A DNA stretch of 64,000 bases, from contig JBAYIZ010000002.1 in assembly GCA_041665405.1 (NCBI GenBank), forward strand, positions 7,300 through 71,299, in the 5' to 3' direction. Position numbers and translations under genes: made by a program. The notes beneath the pieces were generated by a model that worked only from the letters and a program-made list of their open reading frames with translations, was not told where the DNA came from and did no database searches. Source of the DNA: Candidatus Magasanikiibacteriota bacterium. Lineage in GTDB: Bacteria; Patescibacteriota; Patescibacteriia; Magasanikbacterales; GWA2-37-8. Numbering within the stretch: position 1 is the stretch's first letter; each line of letters starts with the position of its first letter. Shown piece after piece: positions 2,097 through 19,323 of the stretch.

Positions 2097-3332
2097 TTAT
2101 AATTTAATTTCAAAGACACCACTTTGGATTGTGTCTGTGAAGAAAACTTTATTTTTTGCTTGATCGTAGTTTATGCTTTTGATGACGTAATCACCGCCCA
2201 AAGAAATATTACTTTTCAAACCAGTTTTCAAATCAATTTTGTACATGTCGTCATTATTGTAAGCCGCAATTTCCGGCATTATACCAGCGCCCTGTTGGAG
2301 CTCACGTGGCACTGCGCAATAGAGTATATTATCACCAGCGAAAGTGCATTTGTCTGCCCAGGTGTTTAATTTGAGCATTTGACGATTACTTCCGATGTTG
2401 TCGCCGTAGGAATCTACCACCCAAAGTTCTGGTTTGAAGTCACTGCGAGTGCTATACACACTGTATAAAAGTTTTTGTCCAGTAGGTGACCATTGTGGTT
2501 GGAAACCAAGGCCTTCGACAACAGTGGACTTAAAATTTTCTCCGTTCAATCCAACAAATAAAACTTCACGTCTTTCTCCACCAAGCGGTTCGCCAGTTTG
2601 AGAAAAGGCAACAGTCTGACGACTGGGGGACCAATCTACTTGCACTTTGCTTGCATTATTTCCCATCGGTTCTACCAAAGTGGTACCACTGCCATCATCA
2701 TTGATGGTGACCAGCCAGCGATTTTCTGGTGATAGCCCAATACTTTTGGCGGCAATTTGATTACTATCTGGTGAAAAAGAAAATTCTGACCAATGTTTTG
2801 GCAAGGTTACTTGTTTTTGTTTTTCAAAGTTATAAATAGTTTTTGATCCGTCGGGATATTCCAATACAGCTTTGTCATTGTTGTTCGCCCAAGTGACGTT
2901 GCTGACATTGTAAAATGTTTGATCGGAAAGAGAGACAATTTTTCCATCACTAGTGAGGCGATAAAATTTGCCGTCGGTAGCATTGTAATATCGCATGTTG
3001 CCAGTTTGATTAAAACCTGGATAACTGACAAATTCTGAAGTCAATTTGACTACCGGTTCTGGTTTTACATATCCGCCCTGAGTGGTTTGAGGAATTGATG
3101 GTGGAGTAGTTTCGATACCGCGGCCGAGTTGTCCACCTGCTGGGATTTCTGTTGAGGGTGTGACAATTCTTTCTCCAGCTCCAGGTAGTTGCCCGGGTGT
3201 CTGGGTAACTACAGTAGTGGTGGTTGGTGCTGTTGTCGTTTTTTTGAAAAGGAAATATAGACCAAAACCAATCATAGCGGCGGTGACCAACAGCGCGATA
3301 ATTAGGAGGATGCGTTTGAGAGCTGGGTTCAT
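2097..3332 (-). CDS. Membrane-anchored TolB-like beta-propeller protein (PD40/WD40-like repeats) with Thr/Pro-rich linker
   Basis: N-terminal TM, TTAPTTTTVVTQTP linker, and repeated ...SPDG/SPDS/SPTG... motifs (FSFSPDSNQIA, DWSPSRQTVAF, QWSPTGQKLLY) characteristic of PD40 propeller blades. Confidence 0.6.
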   Translation of the reverse strand: MNPALKRILLIIALLVTAAMIGFGLYFLFKKTTTAPTTTTVVTQTPGQLPGAGERIVTPSTEIPAGGQLGRGIETTPPSIPQTTQGGYVKPEPVVKLTSEFVSYPGFNQTGNMRYYNATDGKFYRLTSDGKIVSLSDQTFYNVSNVTWANNNDKAVLEYPDGSKTIYNFEKQKQVTLPKHWSEFSFSPDSNQIAAKSIGLSPENRWLVTINDDGSGTTLVEPMGNNASKVQVDWSPSRQTVAFSQTGEPLGGERREVLFVGLNGENFKSTVVEGLGFQPQWSPTGQKLLYSVYSTRSDFKPELWVVDSYGDNIGSNRQMLKLNTWADKCTFAGDNILYCAVPRELQQGAGIMPEIAAYNNDDMYKIDLKTGLKSNISLGGDYVIKSINYDQAKNKVFFTDTIQSGVFEIKL

Positions 3333-3341
3333 ATGTTTAAT

Positions 3342-4967
3342 TTATTTAAGATTTTTATCTTTTATTTCTTTTATAGGTGGTTTTCCCTTCGTTGGATCGT
3401 TTACTTGAATTTTTTTCCAACTATCTGCATCTTCTTTTCTTTCTTGTTTAGTGGCCGAAAGAAGTTGATTGATTTGGACTATTCTTTTTCTCAGTTTAAT
3501 TTTTTTCTTGAGTGGCTCTATCATCTTTTTTATTTTTTCAATCATTGGGTCTATATTATCTTTGATAATTGAGCGTATGGCTTTACTAATTTTTCCAGTG
3601 CCTGCTCCAAATTTAAAGAAAAAAATCGGTATTGCTATGATTGGTGAAAGAATTATAATTATGATACCTACTATTATTTCAACCAACGCGACGCCAATTT
3701 TTATAGCATGGATCACAGATTCTATATAATCTGCGATGGCTATCAGTGCATAAAGAAGAGTCTTGATAGTACGAAGTGTCAGAAGAGCAGCCTTTAACTT
3801 CGCTATTTTTACCACATCTTTTGCATTCGCCTTACCAAAAGTAAGCGAAGTGAGTTGATTGTAAATGGGGCGAGCAAAGGTCCTTAAAATCAGCATTGCT
3901 GGGTTAGTTTTCATTCCCTCAACTGTATTTTCCAGACCAGCTAATTCAGTTCCCAGTTTCTTTCTTTCTTTCTTTAGTTTCTTTTTTCGACTACGATCAC
4001 TTTCCAAATTACTTTTTATTTTATTCATCATTTTTCCAGGTGTCTCCTTTACGCTCTTGACAGTATTATCTACTTTGTTTTTAATTGTTTCTCCTATTCT
4101 ACCGCCTGTTCCTTTATTGGCCCTATCTGAAGCCATATCAGAAGCTGTTTGAGCCTGATTTTGTGGCGCGATCACACCAGGGGTTGTCGATCCAGTTGGA
4201 TGTGGGCCAGTTTCACTGAGAGCACTTTCTGGAACTTTCGGAGGAGTCGTATCTCTCTGTTCAGAAACACTGGATGTTGGTGTTTGATCTGGAGCGGCTG
4301 TGGGTGGTGTTTGTTCAGGAGCAGGTTGGTTTGTGGTCGGTTCTCCAGGTTTGGGTGTTTTTGGTTCTTCTGTGATAGGAGGTTCTTCTGTCGGTTTTTG
4401 TTCCTCTGTTGGTTGCTCAGGTGGTACTTCAGTCGGTGGTTGTTCTGGAGCAGTTTCAGTTGGAGGTGTCGACGGAGTTTGTTCTGGGGTGGGTTGTTTG
4501 GTGTTTGGTTTTCCAGGTTTAGGTGCTTCTGGTTCTCCCACAGTTGGGGTACCTTCTGTTGGTGGTTGTCCTTCGGTTGATTGTTCAGGAGGTGCTTCAT
4601 TCGGTGTCTGTGTCGGAGAGGATTGATTAACAGGTGCTGACTCAACCGGTTTCTCTTCTTCGTCAGGGGCGTCAGATGGTGTGGAATTTTCCTGATTGTC
4701 GTTGACGGCTGATGGTGAAGAAGGTAGACTCCCGAGCTCGTTTGCTTTTTTTGGGAATGGTATAATTTTAGCGTTACCATTAGCCTCAGTGCTGGTTGTT
4801 TTTTTAGTTGGTATTTCTAGTTTTATTACTTCGCCATTTCCAGCTATCTGTGCGCTTCCACCCTCTACTTCTGTTTTTTCAATTTTAAATTTATCACCAT
4901 TAGTTGAGGGTTTGTCACCACCTGATTTTTCCTCTTCTTCAATAGGTTTTCTGGCAAGATTTGCCAT
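3342..4967 (-). CDS. Hypothetical membrane protein with long Pro/Thr/Glu-rich low-complexity repeat region and C-terminal TM helices
   Basis: 541-aa ORF. About 280 aa of PTEEQKPTEEPP / PEQTP-type repeats, encoded by imperfect tandem DNA repeats of about 165-190 bp around 4290-4620. The C-terminal part has hydrophobic helices. No recognisable enzymatic motif. Confidence 0.5.
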   Translation of the reverse strand: MANLARKPIEEEEKSGGDKPSTNGDKFKIEKTEVEGGSAQIAGNGEVIKLEIPTKKTTSTEANGNAKIIPFPKKANELGSLPSSPSAVNDNQENSTPSDAPDEEEKPVESAPVNQSSPTQTPNEAPPEQSTEGQPPTEGTPTVGEPEAPKPGKPNTKQPTPEQTPSTPPTETAPEQPPTEVPPEQPTEEQKPTEEPPITEEPKTPKPGEPTTNQPAPEQTPPTAAPDQTPTSSVSEQRDTTPPKVPESALSETGPHPTGSTTPGVIAPQNQAQTASDMASDRANKGTGGRIGETIKNKVDNTVKSVKETPGKMMNKIKSNLESDRSRKKKLKKERKKLGTELAGLENTVEGMKTNPAMLILRTFARPIYNQLTSLTFGKANAKDVVKIAKLKAALLTLRTIKTLLYALIAIADYIESVIHAIKIGVALVEIIVGIIIIILSPIIAIPIFFFKFGAGTGKISKAIRSIIKDNIDPMIEKIKKMIEPLKKKIKLRKRIVQINQLLSATKQERKEDADSWKKIQVNDPTKGKPPIKEIKDKNLK

Positions 4968-12263: not shown

Positions 12264-12494
12264 ATGGAAGCAACCGTACAAAAAACAACTTCAAAGGGGC
12301 AGATTACTTTGCCAAAAGTATGGAGGGGGCAATTTAAAACCACTCATTTTGTGTTGGAATCTAATAGTGATATTATGATTATCCGTCCAATTTTTTTGGA
12401 TGATCCGAATAATTATAAAACCATATTTAATGCAGATAGAGATAATAAAGGCAAAGGAATATCTGCAAAGAAGTTGTTGAAGTGTATAAAATAA
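12264..12494 (+). CDS. AbrB/MazE/SpoVT-family DNA-binding protein (swapped-hairpin beta-barrel), possible regulator/antitoxin-like
   Basis: ...TSKGQITLPKVWRGQF... matches the AbrB/MazE N-terminal motif. 76 aa. No adjacent toxin-like ORF was detected. Confidence 0.55.
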   Translation: MEATVQKTTSKGQITLPKVWRGQFKTTHFVLESNSDIMIIRPIFLDDPNNYKTIFNADRDNKGKGISAKKLLKCIK

Positions 12495-12714: not shown

Positions 12715-12821
12715 ACAAATTATCAAAAAGAAGACTGGGAAACGCACACCCAGTCAAGGTAGCAAGCTTTAAGCTCGATAGGTTTCGGGTAAGGAGTAAG
12801 CTAATAAGTTGGAGGTGCGCC

Positions 12822-13646
12822 ATGGCGCGCAAAGACAAGGATCTCAAGGAAGTCCTCGGCAACTGGACGATCGGGTTCGAGGCGCTCAGCGCCCTCGTTT
12901 ACGCCATCCTCAAGAAGGGGGGCGGGATCGAGGATCTGAGTCGGCTCAGCGACAAGGAGGATACGACGGTCGTCGATCAGGTCGCCGATCTGCTCGTTCG
13001 TCCGAAGGTCGTTGCGGAACAGCTCGTGGTTCCGCCGCCCCCGCCCAAGCCCGTCGCCCTTCGGATCGAGGACTTCGTCACGCCGATGAAGGACGATCAG
13101 GTGCCGACCATCTTGCTCGTGTTCGTCAGCATCTGGCGCATGATCGCAAACTGGCTCGGCTACACCGGTCCGATCGCGTGGCGCATTCGTGAGGGCTTCA
13201 CCCTCAAGACGATTGCTCCGCAGGTGGGTCCGTGCCGCAAGGACTTCCAGTATCTCCAGAACTGGAACTTCCCGGACGAGCCGACCAAGGACTGCATCGT
13301 TTTCTGGATTCCGCGCCTCGTGGTCGGAAGTACCAGCAAGTCGGTTTCGGAACAGATGAAGCTCTTGGCAGATCTCCGTAAGCAGTTCAATCTGCCCGAG
13401 CACCACCTGTCCGGGTTCGGTTCGGTCACCGTCCTCGCCGCTCTCATTCTCGCCCATCACAAGCTGACGGGCGAGATGGTCCCGTTGGGCGGCAACTGGA
13501 CCCGCACCGACACCTGCGGTTCGGGCGGCGGTCGCCTCGGCCTGGGCTGGGTCGGGGGCGCTCTCTGCTGCGGCGTCTGGAGCTGGGATGGGGTCAGGTA
13601 CGGTAGTGTCGGCGCCTTCCCGCTGGGGGTGGAACTCGAACACTAG
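12822..13646 (+). CDS. DGR target (variable) protein; C-terminal ~37 codons form the variable repeat (VR); whole gene anomalously GC-rich (~60+% vs ~33% background)
   Basis: GGAGG RBS upstream of ATG. 3' end (13515-13625) matches TR 13981-14091 with all mismatches at TR adenines. The opposite-strand ORF 12801..13643 is a high-GC artefact. Confidence 0.7.
   Translation: MARKDKDLKEVLGNWTIGFEALSALVYAILKKGGGIEDLSRLSDKEDTTVVDQVADLLVRPKVVAEQLVVPPPPPKPVALRIEDFVTPMKDDQVPTILLVFVSIWRMIANWLGYTGPIAWRIREGFTLKTIAPQVGPCRKDFQYLQNWNFPDEPTKDCIVFWIPRLVVGSTSKSVSEQMKLLADLRKQFNLPEHHLSGFGSVTVLAALILAHHKLTGEMVPLGGNWTRTDTCGSGGGRLGLGWVGGALCCGVWSWDGVRYGSVGAFPLGVELEH
13515..13625 (+). repeat. DGR variable repeat (VR) followed by GC-rich IMH-like sequence ggggtggaactcgaacac (13626-13643)
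   Basis: 111 nt aligned codon-by-codon with TR. By hand count 22 differences, all where TR has A (e.g. AAC->GGC/TGC/GTC/AGC/TAC). All non-A positions are identical. Confidence 0.8.
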
Positions 13647-13980
13647 GACACTCGGTCCTTCGTTCGGTCACTCTTGGCAACTTGGACTCTCGTCGGTGGT
13701 ACACTTCATGTGTATCATCGGCGGGGGTCCTTCTTTATTTTATAAAAATTTGATATAATTCTATCGGCTGTATCGATAGTGTTTGCGCCCACGGGTGCAG
13801 GCCGGCAGCACAGGGTATTTATTGATCAGAATAATAAAGCGTACGCGTTTTATTAGCGTATCATTAAATATTTGAACTTCTTTTACACCCCGTGTCAAAC
13901 ATTATTGAGTTTGTGACTCAGAATTATATTCAACCCAAAGAGTATTCAATGGGTGGTGTTTCGGGTGGTGTTTGGCATAT

Positions 13981-14091
13981 AGCGATTCGGACGGCAATCG
14001 CCTCAACCTGAACTGGGTCGAGGGCACTCTCAACTGCGACAACTGGAACTGGGATGAGGACAGGAACAGTAATGTCGGCGCCTTCCCGCTG
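13981..14091 (+). repeat. DGR template repeat (TR), non-coding, AAC-rich (six AAC and two AAT codons in VR frame), followed by IMH*-like atgatgtaaatcgaaaaaac
   Basis: No start codon in frame (preceded by TGA at 13915). Adenine-containing counterpart of VR. Located between the target gene and avd/RT. Confidence 0.8.
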
Positions 14092-14106
14092 ATGATGTAA
14101 ATCGAA

Positions 14107-14134
14107 AAAACATCCTCGCTATTGAGGATGTTTT
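14107..14134. terminator. Perfect 11-bp stem hairpin aaaacatcctc-gctatt-gaggatgtttt immediately 3' of TR and 3' of avd (convergent); terminator and/or DGR RNA 3' structural element
   Basis: Inverted repeat seen directly, flanked by A-run and T-run. Confidence 0.5.
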
Positions 14135-14145
14135 GTTTGTAAATA

Positions 14146-14478
14146 TTATTTTTTCATTTCTTTTATCCACCCACCCATCATTTTACCGGCAGTTATGAGT
14201 TGTCCGGAGAGTTGGGAATATTTATTTGTGTTTAATCCTTTTATTTCCCACAAGATAGTTATGAAATATTTTAATGTGTCCAATTTTTTACTTATTTTTT
14301 CAAGGAATATTATTTTTTCTGTGCGTTGAATATAACTGGCGGTGAGAGTTAATTCAATTATGTCGGTAAAAAGATTGTCAATTTTTGTTCCCAAAGTATG
14401 TTTTGTTAATTTTGGCAAGTGGATTAGAAAACCATGCCACAATTTGTAACTTTCATTAAACTTAGTTAAAATTGGCAA
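14146..14478 (-). CDS. avd: Avd-like DGR accessory variability determinant (four-helix-bundle / '23S rRNA intervening sequence protein' family), TTG start
   Basis: 110-aa small helical basic protein with the general pattern of the four-helix-bundle family to which bAvd belongs. Sits between TR and RT, but on the opposite strand. Confidence 0.6.
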   Translation of the reverse strand: MPILTKFNESYKLWHGFLIHLPKLTKHTLGTKIDNLFTDIIELTLTASYIQRTEKIIFLEKISKKLDTLKYFITILWEIKGLNTNKYSQLSGQLITAGKMMGGWIKEMKK

Positions 14479-14488
14479 ATTTTGCTGA

Positions 14489-14498
14489 GGGGGGGGGG
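14489..14498. repeat. Homopolymeric G10 (C10 on minus strand) tract in the 43-bp divergent avd/RT intergenic region
   Basis: gctgaGGGGGGGGGGttaaaag, highly atypical in ~33% GC DNA. Potential slipped-strand phase-variation site or sequencing artefact. Confidence 0.6.
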
Positions 14499-14521
14499 TT
14501 AAAAGAACCGTTTATATTATT

Positions 14522-15529
14522 ATGAAAATTCAATTGCGTCATAGTTATAAAGAATTAGTTAATTTGGAAAATTTGTTATTTGCTTGGCAAGAGTTTATTG
14601 TTGGTAAAAAGAATAAATTGGACGCGCAAATTTTTAATCGCGATCTCATGGACAATATTGTAGAGCTTCACGAGAGTTTGGTCAATCATACATATTGTCA
14701 TGGTGGATACGAAAGTTTTTATGTCACTGATCCAAAGCGACGACATATTCACAAGGCGAGTGTGAGAGACAGGCTGTTGCATCATGCGATTTATCGGATT
14801 TTGTATCCGTTTTTTGATCGGACTTTTATTTCCGATTCATTTTCGTGTCGCGATGACAAAGGGATGCACAGGGCGTTGGATAGGTTTAGAGCGATGAATT
14901 TTGAGGTTAGTAAAAACCACGCTCGCACCTGCTGGGTTCTCAAATGTGATATTCAAAAATTTTTTGATAGTATTGACCACGGAATTTTATTGAATATTTT
15001 ATCTGAGCATATTTCTGACCGAGACATTTTGAATTTATTAAAAAATGTAATTGATAGCTATAATAGTGAAACAAACGGGGTGGGAGTGGGTTTACCACTT
15101 GGCAACCTCACTTCACAATTATTTTCCAACGTATATATGAATGTGTTTGACCAATTTGTTAAACACAAACTTAAAGTAAAAAATTATATCCGCTATGCGG
15201 ATGATTTTGTATTTCTTTCTCATGATAAACAATATTTAGAAAATTTAATACCTCAAATTCGGGATTTTTTAAGTGAAAAATTAAGATTGACTTTGCATCC
15301 TAGAAAAATATATTTGCAAACCATAGCATCAGGGATTGATTTTCTTGGGTGGAAACATTTTGCCAACCACCGTGTACTGAGAAAGACAACCCAAAAAAGA
15401 ATGATGAGAAATATTGAGATTCATCCGACAAACGAAACTTTACAATCATATTTGGGATTATTGAAACATGGGAATAGTGGAAAGATAAAAAATGAATTAT
15501 TGATTATGTCTTGGGTGTGGAGGATATGA
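14522..15529 (+). CDS. Diversity-generating retroelement reverse transcriptase
   Basis: RT motifs: ...KCDIQKFFDSIDH (motif A), LPLGNLTSQLFSNVYMN (the [ILV]GxxxSQ motif diagnostic of DGR RTs), RYADDFVF (YADD catalytic box), GIDFLGW. 335 aa. TGA stop. Confidence 0.9.
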   Translation: MKIQLRHSYKELVNLENLLFAWQEFIVGKKNKLDAQIFNRDLMDNIVELHESLVNHTYCHGGYESFYVTDPKRRHIHKASVRDRLLHHAIYRILYPFFDRTFISDSFSCRDDKGMHRALDRFRAMNFEVSKNHARTCWVLKCDIQKFFDSIDHGILLNILSEHISDRDILNLLKNVIDSYNSETNGVGVGLPLGNLTSQLFSNVYMNVFDQFVKHKLKVKNYIRYADDFVFLSHDKQYLENLIPQIRDFLSEKLRLTLHPRKIYLQTIASGIDFLGWKHFANHRVLRKTTQKRMMRNIEIHPTNETLQSYLGLLKHGNSGKIKNELLIMSWVWRI

Positions 15530-15593
15530 AAACAAAAACTCCGCCAATGATGGTGGAGTTCTTTTTTTGGTCTATGTAAGGAAAAATGCTTTA

Positions 15594-16160
15594 TTAGAAC
15601 TTCACCTGCACATTTTGTTTTTCATTTTCCGCGGCCAAGAAAAATTCGTATTTGGTGAATTTCAACAACCCTGCAAACATATTAGTAGGGAAGACCTGAA
15701 TTTGAGTATTGAAGTCACGCACATTGCCATTGTAAAATCGGCGACTAGCTTGGATTTTATTTTCTGTGTCCGAAATTTCATCTTGCAATTGCAAGAAGTT
15801 TTGGCTGGCTTTTAGATCCGGATAATTTTCAGTGACCGCAAATAGTGATTTCAAAGTAGAGGACAAAGCGTTTTCTGCCTGTTCGCGTTGAGCCAAGGTC
15901 GCGCCAGTATTATCATGAGTAGCCATAGCGGCAGTGCGAGCTTCGGTGAGTTTTGTCAAAGTTTCGCGTTCGTGGGTCATATAGCCCTTTACTGTCTCAA
16001 CTAGATTTGGAATCAGGTCATAACGGCGTTTGAGTTGGACATCAATGTCACTAAATGCTTCATCTACGCGGTTTTTACTGCGTACCAAACCGTTGAATAT
16101 GACAATGATCCAAACCAATCCTATTGCCAGAACTGCTAAAATAATATAAAATGGATTCAT
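15594..16160 (-). CDS. lemA: LemA family membrane protein
   Basis: N-terminal TM plus ...RRYDLIPNLVETVKGYMTHERETL... and ...NFLQLQDEISDTENKIQASRRFYNGNVRDFN... signature regions of the LemA family. Confidence 0.8.
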   Translation of the reverse strand: MNPFYIILAVLAIGLVWIIVIFNGLVRSKNRVDEAFSDIDVQLKRRYDLIPNLVETVKGYMTHERETLTKLTEARTAAMATHDNTGATLAQREQAENALSSTLKSLFAVTENYPDLKASQNFLQLQDEISDTENKIQASRRFYNGNVRDFNTQIQVFPTNMFAGLLKFTKYEFFLAAENEKQNVQVKF

Positions 16161-16187
16161 AGAATATTAACTTAATTAGCAAAGCCG

Positions 16188-17543
16188 GTGTCGGCTTTAT
16201 TGAGTTATTTTACCTTAATTATAATTATAAATCAAGCAACTATGGCCTCTTTGTTGTATTTTATCATTGTTTTAGCGATACTAGTTATTTCACATGAATT
16301 TGGTCATTTTATCATAGCCAAAAAAACTGGCATGAAAGTGCATGAGTTTGGTTTTGGTTTTCCTCCGCGTCTTTTTGGTATTCAATTTTTAAAAGAAAAA
16401 AAATTAAAGAAAATTGCTGAAGTGGAAACAATAGAAGTAAAAGATGAAATCGTGGCTGGTATAGATGGTGGAGAAATTTTACAAGAAACAATTACTGACA
16501 CAACCAAAGAAATAGATATAATAGAAAATAAAACAAAATGGCGGTTTGTTTTGGGCAATCGCGATCTTAATGAAAGTGATGAACAATATGGTACGGTGTA
16601 TTCTTTGAACTGGTTACCACTTGGTGGATTTGTAAAAATAAAAGGAGAGAACGGCGATGGTGCGGATGATCCACAAAGTTTTGCGGCCAAAAAACCATGG
16701 CAAAAGGCAGTGGTATTGGTAGCGGGTGTGGTGATGAATATTATTTTGGCTGGAGTTTTGTTGATCGCTGGATATATGATTGGCCTGCCACAAACTTTGG
16801 ATAATATGGATGATGTGTCTGCGATAAAAGATCGTCGTATTGAAATTTTGCAAACAATTCCTGGCAAACCAGCCGAAGCGGCCGGGATAAAAGCAGGGGA
16901 TGTAGTTGTGCAGGTTGGTGAGATTGTGAATCCTCGTTTGAAAGAATTACAAAATTATGTAAATGAACACAAGACCGAAGAATTGTTATTGCGTGTAAAA
17001 CGTGGCGAAGAAATTATTGATAAAAAAATTACTCCAGCAGTTTACGCCGATACTGGCAAAGGTGGTTTGGGAATTGCGATCGCTGAACTCGGTACGGTGA
17101 AGTATTCATTTTTCCCAGCTATTTGGGAAGGTATCAAAACTACCGGTTGGTATCTGAAAGAAATTTTAGTGGCTTTTTATTTATTGTTGAAAGGTTTGAT
17201 TACCGGTGGTGGTGCAGCTGAGGCGGTGTCTGGTCCAGTGGGAGTAGCAGTGATGACTGGCCAAGTGGCACGCTTGGGCTTGATTTATCTCATCCAATTT
17301 ACTGCGATGCTATCTTTGAATTTAGCGATATTTAATATTTTACCTATTCCAGCTTTGGATGGTGGTCGTTTATTATTTTTAGCAATTGCCAAGATTCGTC
17401 GCAAACCAGTATCTGAAAAAATTGAAGGTATTTTTCATACGGTTGGATTTATGTTGTTGATGTTGCTAGTGGTAGTGGTGACGGTGCGAGATTTATCTAC
17501 TTTCAAAGAATTGATTATGAATTTTTTTAGTAGATTATTTTAA
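16188..17543 (+). CDS. rseP: RIP site-2 metalloprotease RseP (peptidase M50) with PDZ domain; true start possibly the second Met (16242)
   Basis: HEFGHF (HExxH) in the first TM, PDZ region (GIKAGDVVVQVGE), C-terminal NLLPIPALDGG motif. Confidence 0.85.
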   Translation: MSALLSYFTLIIIINQATMASLLYFIIVLAILVISHEFGHFIIAKKTGMKVHEFGFGFPPRLFGIQFLKEKKLKKIAEVETIEVKDEIVAGIDGGEILQETITDTTKEIDIIENKTKWRFVLGNRDLNESDEQYGTVYSLNWLPLGGFVKIKGENGDGADDPQSFAAKKPWQKAVVLVAGVVMNIILAGVLLIAGYMIGLPQTLDNMDDVSAIKDRRIEILQTIPGKPAEAAGIKAGDVVVQVGEIVNPRLKELQNYVNEHKTEELLLRVKRGEEIIDKKITPAVYADTGKGGLGIAIAELGTVKYSFFPAIWEGIKTTGWYLKEILVAFYLLLKGLITGGGAAEAVSGPVGVAVMTGQVARLGLIYLIQFTAMLSLNLAIFNILPIPALDGGRLLFLAIAKIRRKPVSEKIEGIFHTVGFMLLMLLVVVVTVRDLSTFKELIMNFFSRLF

Positions 17544-17545
17544 AT

Positions 17546-18262
17546 ATGAAAATTAACGGGGAAAGATTTTTAAATGACGAAGCCCTTGAGAAAATGAGTG
17601 GGCAATGGAAAAAAGATGCGGATAAATATGAAAAGAGAACTCCAGATTTTCCTTATTATTATCCTGTAAATAGAATTGAAGGTAAAAAACGCGACGGCGG
17701 ACAAATTGATTTGTTGCATAATGAAAGGTTTATTGAGGAAACAATACCAGTATTAATAAAGAATAATCCTGAAAGGAAAATAAAAATATTAGATGTAGGT
17801 GGTGGTACTGGGTTATTTGCGAAACAAATCCGTGAGATCTTTGGTTCAAAAGTAGAGGTGCTTACCACTGGTTTAGTAAAGCAGTCAGCTAGAGTGGAAC
17901 GAGCTTCAATTGGTGAATCAACTAAACTTCATCAAAATGATTTAAAGTGGCGTTCGGTATTAGAACTTAGCGATTTTCCGGAGTTTGATTTGATTATTGA
18001 TACAATGGGAGAAGGATTATGGGGTGTGGGACTTGAAGAGTTTGAAGAATCAAAAGGTAAGATTGAAAATTATTTAAACGCTGTCGCAAAAAAGTTATTA
18101 CCTGGTGGACATGCCAGTATTACACAATTACATGTGGATGAAACTTCCCCTGATGAATTTAGAAAATTGTTTGATCATATAGAACAGGCTTGTGGTGTGA
18201 AGATAGATCGTAATGAAAAAGGTGGTTCAATAAAAATATATAAGAGTGATAAAAAAATATAA
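17546..18262 (+). CDS. Class I SAM-dependent methyltransferase (hypothetical substrate)
   Basis: Motif I ILDVGGGTGLFA and an acidic residue after beta2. No further specificity is discernible. Confidence 0.55.
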   Translation: MKINGERFLNDEALEKMSGQWKKDADKYEKRTPDFPYYYPVNRIEGKKRDGGQIDLLHNERFIEETIPVLIKNNPERKIKILDVGGGTGLFAKQIREIFGSKVEVLTTGLVKQSARVERASIGESTKLHQNDLKWRSVLELSDFPEFDLIIDTMGEGLWGVGLEEFEESKGKIENYLNAVAKKLLPGGHASITQLHVDETSPDEFRKLFDHIEQACGVKIDRNEKGGSIKIYKSDKKI

Positions 18263-18270
18263 GTTAAATA

Positions 18271-19323
18271 TTGTTTATGCAATCTAAACTTGAACAATTA
18301 AAATCCGAAGCGCTGTTGGCTTTGAAGTCAGTCAAAGACAAAATGCAGTTGGAAGAATTGGAAAATAAATTGTTGGGACGCAAAAATGGCGAGCTCACCA
18401 ATATTATGAAGGGGCTCAAAGATTTGGCCGATGATGCTCGCAAAGTAGCTGGCCAAATTGCCAATGAGGTAAAGATAGAAATCGAGAGTGCTTTGCAATC
18501 CAAAAAACAAGAATTGTCTCAAGCGGATTGGTCTTCTGTTTTGGAAAAAGAACGGATAGATATTTCTCAACCAGCTCTGCCAAAAACAGAGCGTGGACAT
18601 TTTCATCCCAATACTATTATCCAAACTGATTTGGAAGATTTGTTTACCTCTATGGGTTTTATGGTTTTGGATGGACCGGAATTAGAAAGTGATTATTACA
18701 ATTTTACTGCCGTAAATATACCAACCACTCATCCGGCGCGCGATATGCAGGATACTTTTTATATCAAAAACCATGATGTGGGGACAGATAGTCCATGGGT
18801 GATGCGTACGCAGACATCTTCGGTGCAGGTGCGAGCGATGCAAAAATATGGCGCCCCACTACGCGCGATTGTGCCAGGCAAATGTTATCGCAACGAAGGT
18901 ACAGATGTCCGCCACGAACATACTTTTTACCAGTTGGAAGGTTTTGTTATTGATGAAAATATTACTTTTGCCCACATGAAAGGGGTAATGGAATCGGTGG
19001 TGGAGCATCTTTTTGGAGAAGAAACAAAATTAAAACTGAGACCAAAATTTTATCCTTTTGTGGAGCCGGGAGTAAATGGTGAAGTGACTTGTTTCCTATG
19101 CAAAGGAAAAGGATGTCGTGTCTGTAAAAATACTGGATGGTTAGAAATTATTGGCGCGGGTATGATTCATCCAAATGTTTTGCGTGAAGGCAAAATTGAT
19201 CCAAATAAATATCAGGGGTTTGCTTTTGGATTTGGTTTGACTCGTCTAGTTATGTTGAAATATGGTATCGAAGATATTCGTCATCTGGAAAGCGGAGATT
19301 TAAAATTTTTAAAACAGTTTTAA
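18271..19323 (+). CDS. pheS: Phenylalanine--tRNA ligase alpha subunit
   Basis: Class II aaRS motifs, ...FNFTAVNIPTTHPARDMQDTFYI..., typical 350-aa size, directly upstream of pheT. Confidence 0.92.
   Translation: MFMQSKLEQLKSEALLALKSVKDKMQLEELENKLLGRKNGELTNIMKGLKDLADDARKVAGQIANEVKIEIESALQSKKQELSQADWSSVLEKERIDISQPALPKTERGHFHPNTIIQTDLEDLFTSMGFMVLDGPELESDYYNFTAVNIPTTHPARDMQDTFYIKNHDVGTDSPWVMRTQTSSVQVRAMQKYGAPLRAIVPGKCYRNEGTDVRHEHTFYQLEGFVIDENITFAHMKGVMESVVEHLFGEETKLKLRPKFYPFVEPGVNGEVTCFLCKGKGCRVCKNTGWLEIIGAGMIHPNVLREGKIDPNKYQGFAFGFGLTRLVMLKYGIEDIRHLESGDLKFLKQF

Follow-up and report, generated by a model that had tools for sequence, protein, structure and literature searches.

The target gene of a diversity-generating retroelement (DGR) in a Candidatus Magasanikiibacteriota bacterium was found to be GC-rich over its entire length in an otherwise AT-rich genome. 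The gene lies in a 64,000-nt stretch of contig JBAYIZ010000002.1 (GenBank assembly GCA_041665405.1, positions 7,300 to 71,299 of the forward strand), referred to here as the window, which contains a complete DGR with a reverse transcriptase (RT), a template repeat (TR) and variable repeat (VR) pair, the target and an accessory variability determinant (Avd). We consider the GC-richness of the target to be a conserved trait of a Patescibacteria DGR clade which is held in place by a gene-specific force, with selection on nucleic-acid composition favoured, and we give this reading a probability of roughly 0.55. Recent import of the gene, which a preliminary description of the sequence had listed as one of several possibilities, is strongly contradicted by the finding that approximately 80 related genes are nearly all GC-rich whatever the composition of the host.

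Composition of the target gene

The log-odds maximal-scoring segment of the window was a GC island of 920 nt with 62.7% GC, the window having 36.7% GC overall. Other 920-nt windows had a mean of 36.4% GC (standard deviation 3.1, maximum 45.4), which places the island at z=8.6 for GC, and the tetranucleotide distance of the island compared with these windows gave z=12.3. No second comparable island was found within the 64 kb. The target open reading frame (ORF) had GC contents of 0.63, 0.43 and 0.83 at the first, second and third codon positions compared with means of 0.44, 0.34 and 0.31 in the 45 other ORFs (standard deviation of 0.05 for third-position GC, GC3). The GC3 was flat over the target ORF, with values of 0.81–0.88 in four segments which included the poorly conserved N-terminal part.

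These calculations agreed with the preliminary description in that the whole ORF is GC-rich within AT-rich surroundings and its third codon positions are mostly G or C. The TR, avd, RT and flanking genes had all been described as AT-rich, which held for avd (29.7% GC), the RT (33.8% GC) and the host ORFs but not for the TR, which has 55% GC (75% at non-A positions). All six reading frames had also been said to be open in this region; only the sense and the in-phase antisense frames are, and frames +1, +2, -1 and -2 carry 5, 3, 5 and 12 stops respectively.

The GC excess of the target is mainly synonymous, since back-translation of the protein with host codon usage yielded just 43.7% GC and a GC3 of 0.33 as opposed to the actual values of 63.1% and 0.83. 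Lysine was encoded by AAG in 15 of 16 cases (16% in the host), phenylalanine by TTC in 10 of 10 (14% in the host) and glutamine by CAG in 8 of 8 (26% in the host), and only 3.3% of third positions were adenine (A3). The protein is somewhat enriched in G, P, R and W. Amino-acid composition was rejected as the cause of the island because it accounts for only 43.7% of the 63.1% GC.

GC-rich targets in related loci

A homologue scan using one genome per species identified 33 loci (numbered with the prefix L) with target homologues from other Patescibacteria. The target homologue was GC-richer than the remainder of the locus in 32 of the 33, by 6 to 28 points, and its GC3 exceeded that of the host in 32 (sign test p=8e-9) and that of every neighbouring ORF in 29. 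Only about eight of these loci contained an RT or TR. In metagenome-assembled genome (MAG) JBAZUI01 three target paralogues were found on three contigs (L001 at 333-1139, L004 and L033), with a TR at L004 (11100-11224). This TR matches the 3' end of L001 on the other contig with 19 of 21 mismatches at adenines, indicating that a single DGR diversifies remote targets in trans, and the remote target L001 has a GC3 of 0.825.

Metagenomes were also scanned with the RT as the anchor, which gave 80 cassettes whose RTs are 58–66% identical to that of the window. Clear TR/VR pairs were observed in 46 of these, and every one of the 46 has a target and VR which precede the TR in the same orientation at a distance of approximately 350–620 nt. 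The arrangement target(+)-TR(+)-avd(-)-RT(+) is found repeatedly among the related cassettes. The GC3 of the VR-bearing ORF was higher than that of its RT in 45 of 45 comparisons, with means of 0.73 and 0.40 respectively (host ORFs 0.43). The hidden Markov model of the window family detected none of these 45 VR-bearing ORFs, which form other sequence clusters. At least three sequence families therefore have the trait, and as 45 targets beyond the reach of the window model are also GC-rich, it belongs to the targets of a DGR clade and not to one protein family.

Seven phage and prophage DGRs were used as controls (BalMu-1, Saumur, Bacteroides p00, proACA1-A, Bacteroides F2, Butyrivibrio Idris and a Helicobacter canis prophage). 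None had a whole-ORF island; the target GC3 was within the range of the neighbouring genes and only the VR was GC-rich, so that a GC island as a universal property of DGRs was rejected. The TR/VR finder yielded no pair in crAss cr55_1, LBR48, Javan5 or the Methanosarcinales virus, which were thus not informative. Viral contigs gave one distant match, L034, with a small GC3 excess.

Independence from host composition

When 60 non-redundant targets were compared with their hosts, GC3 was higher in the target in 59. Regression of target on host GC3 gave a logit slope of 0.12±0.16 (bootstrap confidence interval -0.27 to 0.48), with p=5e-7 for the difference from 1, and bin means of target GC3 stayed at 0.69–0.78 across hosts at 0.29 to 0.63. 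In 32 complete cassettes the GC3 of the RT followed the host (slope 0.55, r=0.74, p=2e-6), as did the GC content of the VR-TR spacer (slope 0.54, r=0.63, p=1e-4), and target GC3 did not (slope -0.13±0.15). The loci L007 and L023 are syntenic and their hosts have a GC3 of 0.64 and 0.33; substitution at four-fold sites has reached saturation in the flanks and in the RT, and the targets still have a GC3 of 0.79 and 0.82.

Mean values from 42 cassettes were 59% GC for the ORF (GC3 0.74), 49% for the first 100 nt after the stop, 44% for the spacer, 55% for the TR (73% at non-A positions) and 40% for upstream sequence, and spacer GC was below ORF GC in all 42. The island started at a median of -4 nt from the called ORF start (interquartile range -64 to +42) and its end lay at a median of 69 nt beyond the stop codon (interquartile range 27–100). 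GC in the target ORFs did not change systematically with distance from the VR.

Two-fold codons ending in a pyrimidine used C at a frequency of 0.68 in targets versus 0.35 in other ORFs, and those ending in a purine used G at 0.69 versus 0.33, with an extra preference for C over G in the targets (p=1.5e-6). The ratio A/(A+T) at four-fold sites was 0.37–0.41 in targets, equal to that of GC-matched ordinary ORFs (p=0.86). Adenine avoidance outside the VR was rejected, as A and T were depleted equally, and the earlier statement that A-to-N mutagenesis is unable to explain the GC content outside the VR was upheld.

Explanations for the set point

We favour an explanation in which the composition of the target transcription unit is under stabilising selection. 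The ORF and approximately 70 nt beyond it, which include the post-VR hairpin, would be kept at a host-independent level of about 59% GC and a GC3 of about 0.74 by a force which acts in place on synonymous sites and less on amino-acid choice, and the RT, avd and VR-TR spacer of the same cassette would drift with the host genome. A GC-rich structured mRNA or duplex, matching the A-poor VR and TR, might shield the part of the gene outside the VR from the RT or from recombination; alternatively, a GC-rich structured target might be required for homing. Unusual selection had been listed among the possibilities in the preliminary description, and the clade-wide, host-independent GC3 favours it in a more general form, or at least favours a persistent gene-specific force. 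Selection on composition was arrived at by elimination, as spill-over of adenine mutagenesis and an antisense gene were excluded and the slope and gradient predicted by GC-biased gene conversion (gBGC) were not observed. One weak positive sign for selection on a structured RNA came from mRNA folding compared with synonymous-codon permutations, where target ORFs had a mean z of -1.90 (n=67; p=3e-16 versus zero) and control ORFs from the same loci a mean z of -1.12 (n=64).

We have to admit that a number of points weigh against this explanation. The excess in folding stability is small and the controls trend in the same direction. Four-fold identity between targets was 0.63–0.70, compared with 0.27–0.50 for the syntenic flanks, in the pairs L025/L029 and L024/L025, which fits exchange of alleles between relatives equally as well as constraint on synonymous sites. 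Two homologues, L028 and L032, have a low GC3 (0.41–0.43) and no DGR parts within 10 kb. The survey covered RTs at least 53% identical to the window RT, which represent a part of the DGRs of the candidate phyla radiation (CPR) and DPANN, and ORF starts and frames in the surveyed loci were taken from a simple in-house caller. 

The smallest positive GC3 excess, 0.116, was seen in L006 and L014. L006 carries a degraded TR-like repeat (2988-3079 / 3376-3467) with non-adenine mismatches and no RT, and a similar arrangement was seen in L014. Taken with L028 and L032, these loci, inspected within 10 kb only, give hints that the GC set point relaxes upon decay of the DGR.

A more specific and more tentative proposal is that retrohoming, or protection from it, in this Patescibacteria clade demands a GC-rich and structured target unit as a whole, beyond the VR, IMH and hairpin, either to block copying of the mRNA by RT-Avd and recombination outside the VR or to permit recognition of a duplex in AT-rich DNA, and that the conserved tract of 8–12 G residues which precedes the RT in these cassettes would be a phase-variable switch of the same system. 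In this combined form we think the proposal has a rather limited chance of being correct.

We rank selection on composition above biased gene conversion or biased repair, in which retrohoming or conversion between paralogues would drive GC3 up as a by-product and which we regard as an unlikely explanation. Elevation of GC3 by this process is said to have been reported for bacteria by Lassalle and co-workers in 2015, and the targets resemble such genes in having a symmetric synonymous shift from AT to GC in a gene which repeatedly receives non-reciprocal transfer. The shift extends to all three codon positions, as would be expected of a pressure like those acting on genomes. Several genomes have two or three paralogous targets, tandem ones included (L001/L004/L033, L022/L027, L069 and L082), the trait goes with DGR targeting even for the target in trans, and the decayed cassette L006 and the locus L014 show the smallest positive excess, all of which would be consistent with conversion. 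However, a constant bias predicts a logit slope of about 1, far from the value measured across the 60 targets, and the cDNA from the TR is homologous to the VR alone, so that a heteroduplex 700 nt upstream is not expected. The targets also differ from genes under gBGC in the size of the effect (30–50 GC3 points), in the absence of dependence on host bias, in limits which match the ORF start and not a fixed tract length, and in the lack of a gradient away from the conversion site at the VR. The spacer from 100 nt beyond the stop is unaffected, and the seven phage DGRs also home into a VR but have no island. The effects of gBGC reported in bacteria amount to a few percent of GC3, not 40–50 points.

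In the model of Lawrence and Ochman, acquired genomic islands arrive with an atypical GC content which is then ameliorated. The window island is like such islands in its sharp compositional break and in its foreign-looking codon usage and tetranucleotide signature, but it is a single ORF with no mobility genes called beside the cassette and with a host-like spacer and RT, and the deviation has the same sign and level in all hosts over a GC3 range of 0.20–0.70. Acquisition could be reconciled with the data if modules of target and TR from a high-GC reservoir (Uhrbacteria-like, 55–58% GC) were turned over horizontally faster than they ameliorate, which we consider improbable. Positions of the loci are rarely syntenic and the window has no flanking gene in common with any other locus. 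The RT and target distances are star-like, uninformative as to co-phylogeny and uncorrelated in pairwise comparison, only those of Avd and target being correlated (rho 0.50), and in the pairs L025/L029 and L024/L025 the targets are more similar than the syntenic flanks both at the protein level and at four-fold sites. In the hosts of highest GC the composition of the target comes nearest to that of the host (L020, GC3 0.74 versus 0.67), and Wu et al. 2018 (PMC5758913) found atypical GC in approximately 20% of DGRs, which they took to indicate transfer.

Against such turnover, the spacer inside the module is host-like and follows the host, so that amelioration would have had to affect it and spare four-fold sites at a distance of 100 nt. 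Import from a high-GC donor is disfavoured because an imported module would either bring a GC-rich spacer and RT with it or lose its synonymous GC as the spacer has done. Most high-GC hosts are still exceeded by their targets (L010, 0.905 versus 0.70; L016, 0.88 versus 0.70), 59 of 60 targets from three sequence families lie above the host, and the cassette is flanked by housekeeping genes, no integrase or transposase having been called next to it. In a search of 5.8 billion proteins the closest non-self match of the window protein had no more than 56% identity, and was thus not the near-identical copy in a high-GC genome for which the preliminary description had suggested a search. The recent horizontal acquisition put forward in the preliminary description is thus countered by the island in 32 of 33 homologous loci and 45 of 45 RT-adjacent targets, by the host-independent GC3 and by the host-like spacer.

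Spill-over of adenine mutagenesis, in which long or mis-templated cDNAs, for example from the target mRNA, would overwrite the whole gene and purge its adenines, is very improbable. Third-position adenine was less frequent than thymine in 33 of 33 family targets, including that of the window with its low A3, and target and TR share a strand, with about 340 nt between them. T is depleted nearly as much as A, the A/(A+T) ratio and the equal shifts of pyrimidine- and purine-ending codons reported above are not those of an adenine-specific process, and the homology of TR and VR ends at 13516/13982.

Support for the junctions and activity of the DGR

A trivial origin from a chimeric assembly, amino-acid composition or an overlapping antisense gene has next to nothing in its favour, for although an antisense frame is open across the gene (12801-13643, 280 aa) and was annotated by the ENA gene caller, and the protein has the residue bias noted above, the VR inside the island is matched by a TR which lies in the AT-rich flank, the 3' junction is covered by an independent contig, dozens of independent assemblies show the same pattern and the sense protein yields a confident model with a C-type lectin (CLec) fold. 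A conserved antisense gene was rejected, as the in-phase antisense frame is fully open in just 12 of 69 targets.

The independent contig, JGI Ga0376277_0056275 (sample 3300037810, 5523 bp), aligned to 13590-19111 of the window at 99.89% identity. It begins inside the VR and spans the GC-to-AT junction at 13.7 kb. The assembly chimera raised in the preliminary description can be set aside, since this contig reproduces the 3' junction and a TR in AT-rich DNA templates a VR in the island; the 5' junction at 12.8 kb is supported by the family-wide pattern only. Six of 5522 positions differed between contig and window, four of them in the VR and two elsewhere, and the four VR differences (13594, 13599, 13600 and 13605) face TR adenines at 14060, 14065, 14066 and 14071. 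As all VR differences in the independent assembly are at TR-adenine sites, this is direct evidence of recent VR diversification in the same population, and the DGR is active. A break of the JGI contig inside the VR is what is expected at a hypervariable site.

The ENA annotation calls the 280-aa in-phase antisense ORF (- strand) in place of the sense gene, and NCBI calls the 274-aa sense gene. GC-rich DGR targets in AT-rich genomes appear prone to such wrong-strand calls.

The target protein

The target protein (NCBI WCV83_00820, encoded on a 104-kb contig of a Candidatus Magasanikbacteria MAG) gave no Pfam family at E<=1, FGE-sulfatase included, and the precomputed Pfam field was empty for all 67 homologues, in keeping with the absence of an obvious family noted at the outset. 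A search of 5.8 billion proteins recovered 66 homologues at 35–56% identity, of which those with names were labelled as Patescibacteria-type and most were unlabelled metagenome proteins. An AlphaFold2 model built from the homologue alignment (predicted local distance difference test score, pLDDT, of 88.5) contained four N-terminal helices and a compact domain from approximately residue 80 to the end; aa 1-60 were assigned to the four-helix region and aa ~80-274 to a predicted domain of C-type-lectin/FGE-like type. Foldseek by itself gave a marginal result. The C-type-lectin/FGE-like fold which had been expected was thus found in the predicted structure and not as membership of a sequence family. 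On the basis of the model, the target is confirmed as a predicted CLec-fold variable protein with the VR on C-terminal strands, and it is, as modelled, a new family of such proteins without Pfam coverage.

TvpA of Treponema denticola (PDB 2y3c), Mtd of Bordetella phage (1yu0) and TaqVP of Thermus (5vf4) are DGR variable proteins with CLec/FGE-like folds. The window protein is like them in that its VR is at the extreme C-terminus of a CLec-type domain and its TR contains AAY codons. Unlike them it has no Pfam FGE-sulfatase match, is small (274 aa) and apparently cytoplasmic, and has a four-helix N-terminal region. The entire ORF is also a compositional island, unlike the targets of the seven phage and prophage DGRs tested.

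The N-terminal helical region (aa 1-60, 12822-13000; MARK...GGG(I/D)(E/D)D...) is apparently common to targets with a different family of C-terminal variable domain. At L043 (4526-5131), L043_0 matches P0002 only over a short segment, which is apparently this N-terminal region. This suggests that the variable proteins may be modular with a common N-terminal adaptor.

Organization of the cassette

Coordinates of the cassette features are presented in Table 1. The TR and VR are 79% identical over 125 nt and 24 of 26 mismatches fall on TR adenines; with the VR at the 3' end of the gene, ending 6 nt before the stop codon, the gene is a DGR target as the preliminary description had it. Homology of the two repeats begins at 13516/13982 with none further upstream, and target and TR are co-oriented. 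No second VR was found in the window.

Table 1. Features of the DGR cassette in the window.
Feature	Position	Strand	Description
GC island	12811..13730	+	target ORF plus 84-nt 3' tail, 62.7% GC; maximal-scoring segment
DGR target (variable protein) gene	12822..13646	+	274 aa, GC3 0.83
Variable repeat (VR)	13516..13640	+	125 nt, 72.8% GC, 9 adenines
Long hairpin (~20-bp stem) followed by T-tract	13684..13730	+	candidate inverted repeat after the initiation of mutagenic homing (IMH) site and/or terminator of target gene; terminator-like scan
AT-rich VR-TR spacer	13731..13981	+	39% GC
Template repeat (TR)	13982..14106	+	125 nt, 55% GC, 33 adenines, 8 AAC/AAT codons besides other codons with adenine in VR reading frame
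Hairpin with T-runs on both strands	14107..14134		candidate bidirectional terminator for TR RNA (+) and avd (-)
Accessory variability determinant (bAvd)	14146..14478	-	29.7% GC; Pfam PF22296 bAvd, E=3.4e-11
G10 homopolymer	14489..14498	+	in 43-nt avd/RT intergenic region
DGR reverse transcriptase	14522..15529	+	335 aa, YADD motif, 33.8% GC, GC3 0.32; Pfam RVT_1 E=1.9e-24

Past a common GTCGGCGCCTTCCCGCTG the VR and TR sequences part, and a hairpin with an approximately 20-bp stem starts 38 nt beyond the stop, its candidate function being read from sequence only. DNA folding of 13620-13745 gave -23.9 kcal/mol (z=-6.4), and the last base of this hairpin is the end of the GC island. Within the spacer, TGATATAAT (13751-13759) has the appearance of an extended -10 element, which makes it a candidate promoter for the TR RNA; a consensus promoter scan did not pick it up. 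For the hairpin which follows the TR, the terminator scan lists the - strand and the reading on the + strand comes from inspection of the sequence. The avd gene is oriented opposite to the target, TR and RT.

In tblastn searches with the window RT, annotated RTs of DGR-carrying phages were matched at 23–38% identity, including those of Bordetella phage BIP-1 and of Bacteroides phage p00, whose record annotates DGR repeats. The window RT has more than 8000 relatives, and among the best 120, which were 58–77% identical, those with a named source were labelled as Patescibacteria-type. The contig of P0069, one of the closest RT relatives, does not include the target.

Upstream neighbours of the cassette are an AbrB/MazE-like ORF, HtpX and an ADP-forming acetyl-CoA synthetase, and those downstream are LemA, RseP and PheST. 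With these housekeeping neighbours the cassette is therefore chromosomal. The repeat search found no bordering direct repeats besides TR and VR. The ORF directly 5' of the target (12264-12494, +) has a weak match to a MazE/AbrB-type antitoxin (PF04014, E=7e-4, below the Pfam cut-off), and no obvious cognate toxin is found beside it.

In 66 of the 80 related cassettes the RT is preceded, at a distance of no more than 100 nt, by a run of at least six G residues, with 8–12 G in the cassettes listed. The length of the tract varies between cassettes and its context is roughly cgttG(n)aTTAaA; in this region upstream of the RT L048 has (GT)12 and L055 a C9 run. From its sequence the tract resembles either a site of slipped-strand phase variation or a conserved element which regulates the expression of RT and avd.

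Relation to known systems

Wu et al. 2018 (PMC5758913) took GC deviation of whole DGRs, in about 20% of cases, as a sign of transfer and described short GC-rich segments only around the mutagenised TR and VR. A DGR clade restricted to Patescibacteria (clade 2) was defined by Roux et al. 2021 (PMC8144416), in which GC content is not mentioned. Full-text literature searches found no paper on GC-rich target ORFs; the survey of Patescibacteria DGRs by Paul et al. 2017 lies outside these searches and may contain an earlier mention. The clade-wide, host-independent GC set point of the target ORFs therefore appears to be undescribed. Taken as a cassette, the element is a typical CPR DGR, and like the 'CPR set' of PMC5758913 and 'DGR clade 2' of PMC8144416 it belongs with chromosomal cassettes which have small targets of unknown family and multiple or trans targets. 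What differs from the accounts of CPR DGRs in these two papers is the set point confined to the target and independent of the host.

These observations have several practical consequences. Detectors of horizontal gene transfer which are based on composition will flag these CPR target genes as foreign. GC-rich targets may be called on the wrong strand, as ENA did for this contig, and can disturb binning. On the other hand, DGR targets in AT-rich CPR genomes, remote ones included, can be predicted cheaply from GC islands confined to a single ORF.

To our knowledge, DGRs are the only natural machines for targeted protein hypermutation in prokaryotes, and we know of no established mechanism by which the cDNA finds and replaces the VR. 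A host-independent composition which extends across the whole target, in one large DGR clade but not in the phage DGRs, constrains the mechanism of homing.

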